This document shows positions 6,086-10,485 of a DNA stretch of 32,000 bases, piece by piece. Made by a program: the position numbers and the translations under genes. The stretch is from NCBI GenBank assembly GCA_047651235.1, contig CP178758.1, positions 570,001 through 602,000 of the forward strand, in the 5' to 3' direction. The notes below the pieces were generated by a model. The model saw only the letters and a list, made by a program, of their open reading frames with translations. It had not been told where the DNA came from and did not search any database. Positions within the stretch are counted from its first letter, which is position 1. Each line of letters begins with the position of its first letter. The DNA is from Candidatus Electrothrix yaqonensis (GTDB lineage: Bacteria > Desulfobacterota > Desulfobulbia > Desulfobulbales > Desulfobulbaceae).

Positions 6086-6586
6086 ATGAAACCATTTTTG
6101 ATAGCCACTGTCGCGCTGATGTTGCTGGGGGCAGCTTCGGTTGGCCGGGCGGAAGTGAAAGAAGTCTATTTTCTGCACAGAACGAAAACAAAGGGCGTAC
6201 TGAAATTAGACTGTGATAAAGAGCAGAAGGGCAATCGGCCACCAGTCTATACGTGCTATGACAACGACGGCAACGGGCAGTCGATAACGCCCGGCCCAGA
6301 ATGGCAACTGGCCGAGCTGAGCCGTGTCTGTCTGCACAACACGGTGACAGATACGGTCAGGGACTGTTTGGGTATTGCTGCCCCTGGAAAACAGCCGGAA
6401 TTTTTTGTCTGTCAGGATGACAAAGGCACCTTCTTCCGCCCCCCGACCGAATGGGAAAAGCTCAATGCCGATGATGGACGTTGCGCTCCTCCGCCGAAAA
6501 AACTCGTTGATCTGCTGATCAGAGGAGAAAGTTCCGCTGCTCTGCCTTCTCAAATCGAATGGAGCGAAGCCAATGGCGCACAATAA
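6086..6586 (+). CDS. Secreted Cys-containing hypothetical protein
   Basis: ATG at 6086 follows AAGGAG (6073-6078). MKPFLIATVALMLLGAASVGRA-EV is signal-peptide-like. The mature part contains several Cys residues. I recognise no family. Confidence 0.65.
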   Translation: MKPFLIATVALMLLGAASVGRAEVKEVYFLHRTKTKGVLKLDCDKEQKGNRPPVYTCYDNDGNGQSITPGPEWQLAELSRVCLHNTVTDTVRDCLGIAAPGKQPEFFVCQDDKGTFFRPPTEWEKLNADDGRCAPPPKKLVDLLIRGESSAALPSQIEWSEANGAQ

Positions 6587-7238
6587 TGAAGCCCTTCCCT
6601 GGTCCGGGCTGATCGATATCGGCCTGCTTACAGGTCTCGGCACGGCCCTGCTGTACACGGCGGGCTGGTCGTATGCCTATAATTATTTCGGTCATTTTCA
6701 GATCGGGCTGCTGGGGATTACCATTCAGCGGGAGTACTTTTTCCTGTACGGTTTTTGGGTGCTCAAGAAATATTGGTTCTGTTTTCTGCTCTGCCTGCTT
6801 CTCGGCACCGGCCTATATTTCCTTGTTCGCTACGGATGGCGAAGGGCACAGACTGGACCTGCCAATCAGGTGAACAAGCGCCTTGCTTTGGTGCGGGCTG
6901 CAATATATGTTGGCGGGCCATTCTGTCTGCTGCTCCTGTTCATCTGGTTTTCCTGTCTCGGAGCAGCAACCGCCAAAGCGGTCTTTAAGCTGGAACAGGC
7001 CGGAGATTTTACCGATTATCCAAGAATCAAGGTCTGGGTGACAGGGAAGCAGGATAAAAAGGCCGAAAAATGGGCCAGTGGGTGTTATCAGCTCCTAGTG
7101 CGGGATAAAGACAATCTGTATCTCTTTCTGGCTGAGGAGATGAAAGACCGGATACCTGCGGATATTATTCCGACCGGTCAGGTAACGGCAGTGCGGGTGA
7201 TGCAGTGGTATAAGATGACGGGTAAAGAGTGCCTGTAA
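6573..7238 (+). CDS. Hypothetical multi-pass membrane protein
   Basis: 221-aa ORF that overlaps the preceding gene by 14 nt. It has several long hydrophobic segments (LLTGLGTALLYTAGW, YFFLYGFWVL, FCFLLCLLLGTGLYFLV, GGPFCLLLLFIWFSCLGAA). Confidence 0.6.
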   Translation: MAHNNEALPWSGLIDIGLLTGLGTALLYTAGWSYAYNYFGHFQIGLLGITIQREYFFLYGFWVLKKYWFCFLLCLLLGTGLYFLVRYGWRRAQTGPANQVNKRLALVRAAIYVGGPFCLLLLFIWFSCLGAATAKAVFKLEQAGDFTDYPRIKVWVTGKQDKKAEKWASGCYQLLVRDKDNLYLFLAEEMKDRIPADIIPTGQVTAVRVMQWYKMTGKECL

Positions 7239-10200: not shown

Positions 10201-10485
10201 TCCGCCTGTGACACCGGCAAAGGCGTGGTGGATTACTCCGAAGGCGTGTACGGCTTGGTTCGCGCCTTCCGCACTGCCGGGGCCAAAAACGTCCTCATGA
10301 CCCTGACCCCGGTCGGCGACAGATCATCACGCGAGTTCATGGAAACCTTCTACGACCATTATCTTTCCGAAAACCTCACCCCATCCCAAGCCCTGCACAA
10401 AACCCGGATGGATTTCATCCACCATGAAAAACCGGCTTACCGCGACCCGGCGGTGTGGTCGCCGTATGTGCTGGTGGGTCGGTAA
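7285..10485 (+). CDS. Signal-peptide-bearing TPR repeat / coiled-coil / CHAT (caspase-fold peptidase) domain protein
   Basis: 1066 aa. The N-terminus [26 protein letters not shown] is signal-like. Residues ~60-470 are TPR_10/12-like repeats (e.g. [33 protein letters not shown]). A charged coiled-coil stretch is encoded at ~9000-9560. The C-terminal CHAT signature has His in LHLSTHGF (codon 10012-10014) and Cys in [11 protein letters not shown] (codon 10207-10209). Confidence 0.85.
   Translation: [1066 protein letters not shown]

Follow-up and report, generated by a model that had tools for sequence, protein, structure and literature searches.

A 32,000-nucleotide (nt) stretch of the genome of Candidatus Electrothrix yaqonensis (contig CP178758.1, positions 570,001 to 602,000 of the forward strand; hereafter the window) encodes a three-gene cassette that very probably works as a true functional unit and includes an exported, active CHAT protease. 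The three genes, termed here g1 (small secreted protein), g2 (membrane protein), and g3 (TPR-CHAT protein), are tightly packed on the forward strand, as seen both in the list of open reading frames (ORFs) and in the raw sequence, and the working parts of all three products are predicted to face the periplasm. TPR-CHAT proteases with a caspase fold have been known as switches that act in the cytoplasm, e.g., separase, Craspase, and the activators of gasdermins. The g3 product is a new member of this known family; what is new to the TPR-CHAT theme is the three-gene, periplasm-facing arrangement. Our favored reading, for which we see about an even chance when all its parts are taken together, is that the cassette encodes a periplasm-facing proteolytic switch, in which the CHAT domain engages the tail of the g1 protein, with a role in conflict, defense, or cell death rather than in housekeeping.

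A first-pass annotation made from the DNA alone had described three ORFs with a 14-nt overlap between the first two and a 46-nt gap before the third, and had proposed that they act as a unit. The coordinates proved exact (overlap, 6573-6586; gap, 7239-7284; Table 1). The g1 ORF as listed runs over 6041..6586 with an alternative ATG at 6041; the ATG at 6086 is the likely start, because of its spacing from an AGGAG motif and because database homologs begin with MK.... A scan of 5700-10900 for promoters and terminators returned counts close to chance, with nothing useful 5′ of g1 or 3′ of g3. The proposal of a unit was followed up by surveying loci in scans of species-representative genomes and metagenomes, together with look-ups of distant g2-family members. 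The survey was seeded from g2 and not from CHAT, because the latter domain is common and would bias the test. A g3-like gene (TPR, middle region, CHAT) adjoins g2 in about 28 of the 31 independent loci with enough flanking DNA, and a small Cys-rich ORF is found there nearly everywhere, such that the proposed co-occurrence held. The linked loci come from Desulfobacterota (Electrothrix, Electronema, Desulfobulbaceae UBA5173, and Desulfococcaceae HSG8), Gammaproteobacteria (three loci of Candidatus Thiosymbion), Planctomycetota (Candidatus Anammoxibacter), Alphaproteobacteria (Thalassobaculum salexigens), and several unbinned metagenome contigs, one of them rich in guanine and cytosine (GC). The closest named relatives of g1 and g2 are adjacent genes of Candidatus Electrothrix communis, and close relatives are few. 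Two to three copies of the cassette per genome occur in E. laxa, Thiosymbion, and Anammoxibacter, with the two E. laxa copies being paralogous.

The order of the genes is usually g1-g2-CHAT; it is CHAT-g1-g2 in two loci (L047 and L052) and divergent in two others (L021 and L044), and this variability favors selection on the linkage over the plain inheritance of one operon. Across 21 loci, the identities of g2 and CHAT to the window copies co-vary with a Spearman coefficient of 0.96, in a set that includes paralogous copies from one genome (L008 and L012). More distant exported TPR-CHAT proteins, with about 32% CHAT identity and likewise built of a signal peptide, TPRs, and CHAT, are typified by one encoded on a Shinella plasmid (Shinella zoogloeoides WP_160787459.1); they differ in standing alone without g1- or g2-like neighbors and are annotated by domain only. 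Hence, the linkage is near-obligatory from the side of g2 and confined to one CHAT subclade. A chance adjacency of three functionally unrelated genes is extremely improbable, being contradicted by a synteny kept across phyla despite changes in order and flanks, by the start/stop overlap, and by the strongly correlated divergence of g2 and CHAT.

The same annotation had assigned to g3 a signal-like N-terminus, a TPR array, a charged region, and a C-terminal CHAT domain with a preserved His-Cys dyad, and each of these assignments stood up. Pfam recovers TPR_10 (E 1e-44), TPR_12 (E 1e-42), and CHAT (PF12770; E 8.8e-54; 183.3 bits, cut-off 24; positions 9-289 of the 289 in the profile) where they had been placed, and the codons of the dyad lie exactly where claimed. 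His910 and Cys975 are invariant in 16 closer homologs and in a set of 15 CHAT domains, and both are preceded by a hydrophobic strand (H910 in ILHLSTHG, C975 in LSLSAC). A further constraint is seen in 40 positions that are invariant across the 15 CHAT domains, down to 33% identity, and in the motif DYSEG (residues 983-987), which is invariant in the 16 closer homologs. A profile of the 15 CHAT homologs matches a single solved structure, the TPR-CHAT protein DdvA (8rot/8rw5; chain 8rot_B, E 5e-6), in a link between sequence and profile only that aligns Cys975 with the catalytic Cys907 of DdvA. In searches against PDB sequences, full-length g3 matched only kinesin-light-chain TPRs, and its CHAT half alone gave nothing above noise. 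Profile and dyad thus place g3 in the CHAT family, as a predicted protease with every sign of catalytic competence. Between the repeats and the CHAT domain, charged residues amount to 38% of residues 575-640 and 43% of residues 690-750, both stretches being poor in Pro and Gly, which bears out the charged region; a coiled coil is plausible here, and there are weak matches to the coiled-coil proteins YabA (residues 691-748, E 0.053) and YscO (E 0.097, with an alignment extending back over 640-690).

By inspection, the N-terminus of g3 has the n-h-c layout of a Sec signal peptide with a cut between ALS and E, and its assignment is backed by conservation, as every intact CHAT homolog, when inspected, likewise carries a signal peptide. 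In two homologs (L044 and L021) it ends in a lipobox-like ...SAC or ...SSC. The bulk of g3 is accordingly predicted to lie outside the cytoplasm, whether the segment is cleaved or serves as an anchor, and the protein has only 3 Cys in its 1066 residues. Within g3, divergence is far faster in the TPR array than in CHAT: relative to the E. communis ortholog, the identity is 77% in CHAT, 45% in the middle region, and about 34% in the TPR region. Among the homologs, the middle region shows 30-48% identity, and the TPR region about 30-39% irrespective of relatedness, even where that of CHAT is 77%. Intact homologs range from about 680 to about 1400 residues, with the difference coming mostly from the repeat arm. 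In the window copy, the TPR-containing stretch (nt 7462-8694, residues ~60-470) has a GC content of 0.406, against 0.550 in the CHAT part (9535-10482) and 0.529 in the window as a whole; this contrast could stem from amino acid composition or from recombinational replacement of the repeat arm. No tandem repeats were found at the DNA level in the TPR region.

The g1 protein opens with MKPFLIATVALMLLGAASVGRA, followed by EV after the predicted cut, in a Sec-type n-h-c layout, and a hydrophobic N-terminus is found in all its homologs. The mature protein holds 6 Cys, and Cys43, Cys57, and Cys133 are invariant in the family alignment (A2). It has no usable match in Pfam, NCBIfam, PADLOC, or PHROG and no PDB relative, and a Pfam scan of 16 family members was likewise without a match. 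Desulfobulbaceae encode long forms and other lineages short forms, which are homologous (hhalign probability 93.5%, E 2e-7); the two halves of g1 show no similarity by BLASTP (E 5.7), and we therefore speak of long and short forms and not of an internal duplication. An AlphaFold2 (AF2) model built from 8 sequences is weak, with a predicted local distance difference test score (pLDDT) of 56, a β core at 27-126, and a tail (136-166) that scores below 50 and is left disordered, and it was judged too poor for a fold search. Nearly all g2 homologs are preceded by an ORF of 105-175 residues with a signal peptide and 6-10 Cys, even where tblastn with g1 gave nothing. In nearly all loci its stop overlaps the g2 start, usually by 1-17 nt, which indicates translational coupling.

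Outside of a single short motif, the g1 tails are unalignable between lineages. This motif, of the form [VIL]-[PI]-[RK]-[GNT], is LIRG in the window copy and VPRN, IPRG, VIRG, or VPKG elsewhere, and mostly lies 9-12 residues past the last Cys. It occurs in its strict form in 23 of the 34 g1-family tails, which are related sequences and not independent trials, as against 0.55 ± 0.76 in shuffled tails; if near variants are allowed, it is present in 33 of the 34, and all 33 have a basic residue (Arg or Lys) in third place. Peptidases of clan CD have a strict P1 specificity, often for Arg or Lys, as in metacaspases, gingipains, and separase. We accordingly regard the conserved basic residue as a candidate P1 position of a cleavage or pseudosubstrate site. 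Such a tail could also be read as part of a maturation system, with g1 as the precursor of a small disulfide-rich factor (a bacteriocin-like toxin, pheromone, or adhesin), CHAT as the enzyme trimming its tail, and g2 as an immunity or docking protein. The signal peptide, the conserved Cys, the near-fixed distance of the motif from the last Cys, a coupling of g1 and g2 as seen in toxin/immunity or precursor/immunity pairs, and a small, polytopic g2 devoid of a catalytic signature would all suit such a system. Nevertheless, simple leader or tail peptidases do not look like a protease of about 1000 residues whose TPR array is long and fast-diverging; none of the examined loci links the cassette to an exporter or secretion-system gene; only 2-3 residues would come off in Anammoxibacter; and of the three parts, the mature g1 core shows the least conservation. 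We therefore deem this explanation unlikely.

For the g2 family, a profile search of 1.84 billion representatives recovered at least 521 clusters at E≤1e-3, of which 223 are at E≤1e-10, almost all of them single-domain proteins of 195-250 residues. Pfam, NCBIfam, PADLOC, and PHROG have no match to g2, 40 diverse family members gave no genuine Pfam match, and no relative in the PDB was found with the family profile. The AF2 model (alignment A1) is confident (pLDDT 83.6; predicted template-modeling score 0.79) and comprises three long membrane helices and a small β-barrel, with helices at 10-40, 53-66, 68-93, and 97-143 and a five-stranded barrel with strands spanning 151-209. Following the first helix is a highly conserved, aromatic-rich segment (LYTAGWSYAYxYF...GLLGL...EYFFLYGF). 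A Foldseek search with the model against the PDB yielded nothing at E≤0.001; the best matches (E ~0.1) are generic small barrels (RimP, Sm/Hfq, SH3, and ribosomal L14e-like) and involve the C-terminal domain alone. The loop at 89-108, which sits before the last helix, is basic (5 Lys+Arg, 0 Asp+Glu), and Cys171 and Cys220 are conserved in 87% and 92%, respectively, of the 40 diverse members. The barrel is predicted to be periplasmic on account of this loop, by the positive-inside rule, and of the two Cys, whose conservation suggests a disulfide. In the model, g2 has no cytoplasmic domain. Together with the signal peptides of g1 and the CHAT homologs and the scarcity of Cys in g3, the conserved Cys of g1 and g2 and the basic g2 loop are the grounds on which we place all three working parts in the periplasm. 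In line with what the first-pass annotation had suspected, the cassette appears to be undescribed as a unit: g1 and g2 define two families without annotation, neither having a relative in Pfam, NCBIfam, PADLOC, PHROG, or PDB, and a literature search found no published description of the trio.

A few observations on individual sequences concern these families. At the start of the barrel, g2 has a conserved Y-P-R-[VI] motif (YPRI at residues 149-152, 7017-7028; in the wide family Pro150 82%, Arg151 62%, and Val152 75%), which resembles the [VIL]-P-[RK] motif of the g1 tail; it may mark a second protease site, or the likeness may be coincidental. In one Electrothrix locus (L013), the g1 tail motif is degraded to VSRT...VIQG. 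One g2 homolog is followed by only the last ~30 codons of a CHAT gene (L028, 1001-1126), and another, of 228 residues, is fused to the last ~30 residues of a CHAT protein (P0018); both are apparent deletion remnants or assembly artifacts. The g2 and CHAT genes of the Thiosymbion loci (noted at L020, 3610-3912, and L017, 10600-11525) lie about 1 kb apart, and by eye this spacer holds a fragment resembling IS200/REP-associated transposases; the CHAT gene of L017 is apparently frameshifted near its 5′ end.

Several known systems offer partial parallels. In Craspase (type III-E CRISPR), the TPR-CHAT protease Csx29 acts with Cas7-11 and, upon activation, cuts Csx30, a substrate encoded next door. 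The cassette shares with it the TPR-CHAT architecture and dedicated neighboring partners, but Csx29 is cytoplasmic and RNA-guided via Cas7-11, whereas g3 is predicted to be exported by its signal peptide. No Cas7-11/gRAMP, CRISPR array, or Csx30/Csx31 was found in the window or the related loci, and PDB searches with the g3 CHAT sequences returned no match to Csx29. Membership in Craspase was rejected, as there are no cas genes or CRISPR array and g3 carries a conserved signal peptide. Separase, a eukaryotic protease of the CHAT clan with a helical repeat arm, cuts after Arg and is held in check by the pseudosubstrate inhibitor securin. The likeness here lies in the repeat arm joined to a caspase fold and in a small partner, disordered in part, whose short motif would present a basic P1-like residue to the active site; this is an analogy of mechanism alone, since separase is eukaryotic and cytoplasmic or nuclear, and g1 is disulfide-rich, secreted, and not a homolog of securin. 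Bacterial and fungal gasdermin systems couple a caspase-like or CHAT protease to an adjacent membrane-acting protein that it activates. These too have a repeat-sensor protease beside a membrane-acting protein of ~220-270 residues in variable regions of the genome, but the cassette is periplasm-facing, has a third component in g1, and its g2 is not a gasdermin. Membership in these systems was rejected because g1 and g2 belong to no Pfam family and the g2 model, which combines transmembrane helices with a small barrel, matched no fold in the PDB.

The closest parallel in location is DdvA, described as "the only" characterized periplasmic TPR-CHAT protein, which has an H862 and C907 dyad and is tied to phage defense (PMC11506125). 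Like g3, it has a TPR array followed by CHAT, a periplasmic location (deduced for g3 from signal peptides), and a His-Cys dyad; the catalytic Cys residues align, and the sequence similarity is confined to about 90 residues around them. Unlike the cassette, DdvA consists of one polypeptide, which has a zinc-binding anti-sigma domain at its N-terminus as well as a transmembrane helix, and it is partnered by an extracytoplasmic function (ECF) sigma factor. In g3, a signal peptide of 24 residues is followed by TPR-like sequence; Pfam finds no anti-sigma domain in it, and there is no sigma or anti-sigma gene among its neighbors. The membrane part of the cassette is, moreover, a separate protein with three transmembrane helices and, in the model, no cytoplasmic domain, accompanied by an additional small secreted protein. 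An identity as a DdvA-type anti-sigma system was rejected, given the want of an anti-sigma domain in g3 and of an ECF sigma factor gene nearby. DdvA has been proposed to detect a cue in the envelope and cleave a segment tethered to the membrane; its dyad is kept but its active site is incomplete, and no constitutive cleavage was seen (PMC11506125). This precedent raises the possibility that the CHAT domain of g3 is a non-catalytic scaffold or sensor that binds g1 and g2 with its dyad kept but idle, as that of DdvA may be at rest, the activity of g3 being predicted from sequence. The 40 invariant positions of the 15 CHAT domains and the invariant DYSEG of the 16 homologs are, on the contrary, what selection on catalysis would be expected to leave, and the conserved basic residue of the g1 motif fits a P1 site; an idle CHAT domain is thus very unlikely. 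The mechanism may most resemble DdvA in its location and separase-securin or Csx29-Csx30 in its dedicated small partner.

Given the P1 preference of clan CD, the neighbor-encoded partners of TPR-CHAT proteases (Csx30 and securin), and the link of DdvA to phage defense, we propose the following mechanism. The g1 protein would be exported by Sec and fold into a disulfide-rich β core, with a flexible tail presenting LIRG (144-147). The g2 protein, translated in step with g1, would sit in the inner membrane with its disulfide-stapled barrel projecting into the periplasm, and the two might assemble as a membrane-bound complex. The g3 protein would be exported via a cleavable signal peptide and be active through His910 and Cys975; its CHAT domain would engage the g1 tail at the basic residue and either cut after Arg146 or be restrained by the tail in the manner of securin. 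The fast-evolving TPR array would bind a periplasmic cue and set the timing, and the output would be at the inner membrane through g2, where it is placed because g2 would have no cytoplasmic domain with which to signal. Among the parts of this proposal, a role in conflict or cell death is put forward tentatively, as somewhat short of an even chance, and the cleavage step on the g1 tail is, similarly, possible but doubtful. An extension that we consider unlikely is an extracytoplasmic caspase-type death switch, in which g3 would sense a phage, neighbor-cell, or damage cue in the periplasm and cut the g1 tail after the conserved Arg or Lys, a step that frees g2 to breach or depolarize the inner membrane.

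The attribution to conflict draws on the divergence of the TPR array, the GC contrast within g3, the multiple copies, the differing flanks, and the neighboring mobile-element, toxin-antitoxin, Uma2, and PDDEXK genes. In the window, the cassette is flanked by a divergent nnr gene and, starting 57 nt past g3, a UPF0175 antitoxin-like gene (10542-10784, forward strand), which is followed by an AAA-type ATPase (10893-12428, forward strand; weak AAA_22 match). The UPF0175 and ATPase genes are not conserved beside the cassette in the other genomes compared. In E. communis (CP130629.1, L005) and two metagenome contigs (L006 and L007), genes for an sdhA-like flavoprotein and an sdhB-like Fe-S protein bracket the cassette, which is accompanied there by Uma2 and PDDEXK_2 or DUF6364-PIN genes and looks like an island inserted into an operon. 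Elsewhere, the neighbors include a serine recombinase, ArdC, a phage-type integrase, transposases of insertion sequences, and PIN/ParE/Gp49 toxin-antitoxin genes; the flanks differ between related genomes, and the distribution is patchy across phyla.

This setting also bears on an alternative role in envelope housekeeping or stress signaling, in which the TPR-CHAT protein would be a periplasmic quality-control or regulatory protease, with g1 and g2 as a membrane adaptor and regulator, much as other periplasmic proteases are controlled by adaptors. All the parts are predicted to face the periplasm, exported TPR-CHAT proteins also occur alone, as on the Shinella plasmid, and one Anammoxibacter g1-g2 pair (JAIQZQ010000080.1, L001/L018) lies among envelope genes, in a cluster (4136-12652) of two CsgG-like lipoproteins, a TPR protein, a Peptidase_C14-LPP20 protein, an FlgT_N-like protein, and a PDZ protein. 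Set against this are the patchy distribution, the several copies per genome, the differing flanks, the frequent mobile-element and toxin-antitoxin neighbors, the hypervariable TPR arm, and the apparent lack of a cytoplasmic domain in g2 to relay a signal, which make such a role distinctly unlikely.

A number of points weigh against the proteolytic switch as proposed. That g1 and g2 are physically linked to g3 is something we infer. Two loci pair g1-g2 with something other than CHAT: in the Electrothrix locus L013 (JBATKL010000101.1), they are followed by a vWA protein (10644-12200, E 2e-18), and in the above Anammoxibacter locus they are paired with the Peptidase_C14-LPP20 gene, which is convergent and codes for another exported, caspase-fold enzyme of clan CD. 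As the DdvA dyad coexists with an incomplete active site, an intact dyad in g3 is no proof of activity, and a periplasmic cysteine protease needs its thiol kept reduced in an oxidizing compartment. The AF2 model of g1 is poor, its tail motif could instead bind g2 or another partner, and the g1-like proteins of Anammoxibacter finish 2-3 residues past the motif. For its part, g2 lacks a recognizable pore-forming or enzymatic signature and has few conserved polar residues. With respect to conflict, surroundings rich in toxin-antitoxin genes are common in these organisms anyway, no g2 relatives were found on phage contigs (IMG/VR) or plasmids (PLSDB, with three family members as queries), and PADLOC-DB 2.0 gave matches only at noise level (TPR, E 0.005; LmuB, E 0.99).

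If the favored reading holds, the module would be the second, and a much more widespread, periplasmic TPR-CHAT design after DdvA, set apart by its separate parts, two unannotated families (one of at least 521 clusters with an unmatched fold), and a candidate cleavage motif. It would thereby offer a way into the question of how caspase-like decisions could be made at the bacterial cell envelope, and the g1 and g2 families could enter domain databases. The module further bears on the role of the caspase-domain genes of cable bacteria, whose existence and need for study have been noted in connection with unexplained "ghost cells" (PMC12163305). Were the death switch to be true, it could underlie both the ghost cells and controlled filament breakage in these multicellular bacteria.

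Table 1. Features of the g1-g2-g3 cassette (coordinates are window positions).
Feature	Coordinates	Strand	Basis
Shine-Dalgarno AGGAG	6074..6078	+	7 nt 5′ of g1 start codon; read from sequence
g1, small secreted Cys-rich protein, 166 aa, long form	6086..6586	+	sequence, homologs
g1 signal peptide, residues 1-22, predicted cut after GRA (VGRA/E)	6086..6151	+	n-h-c layout by inspection
g1 tail motif L144-I145-R146-G147, candidate recognition/cleavage/pseudosubstrate site	6515..6526	+	[VIL]-[PI]-[RK]-[GNT] conservation
g2, predicted inner-membrane protein, 221 aa, three transmembrane helices and C-terminal small β-barrel	6573..7238	+	AF2, family alignment
g2 C-terminal domain, residues 145-221, predicted periplasmic	7005..7235	+	Cys171/Cys220 pair, positive-inside rule
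g3, exported TPR-CHAT cysteine protease (predicted), 1066 aa	7285..10485	+	Pfam, conservation
g3 signal peptide, residues 1-24, predicted cut after ALS	7285..7356	+	inspection; equivalent in all intact homologs
TPR_10/TPR_12 array, residues ~145-465, putative sensor/binding arm	7717..8679	+	Pfam
Charged helical middle region, residues 575-750	9007..9534	+	composition; β-like stretch at 640-690 inside
CHAT (caspase-fold) peptidase domain, residues 751-1066	9535..10482	+	Pfam PF12770
Catalytic His910 codon CAC	10012..10014	+	motif ILH[LI][SA]THG; LHLSTHGF in g3
Catalytic Cys975 codon TGT	10207..10209	+	LSAC motif; LSACDTG in g3

Beyond the cassette, the window has a c-di-GMP-I-GGC riboswitch aptamer at 678-756 on the forward strand (Rfam RF03167; 59.2 bits, gathering score 59; E 1e-11), just 5′ of or overlapping the listed start of an ORF at 707..1837 (376 residues, no Pfam match), whose true start is probably further downstream. 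At 21000-24000, the GC content falls to 0.43-0.46 (window, 0.53), and this stretch contains two ORFs that have no Pfam match (21644-22321, 225 residues; 23183-24148, 321 residues). Toward the end of the window, a STAND NTPase of the NB-ARC/NACHT type (28095-29750, forward strand; 551 residues; E 6e-31) precedes an endonuclease-like gene of the Uma2 family (30023-30622, forward strand), and the two constitute a second conflict-type gene pair in the window.

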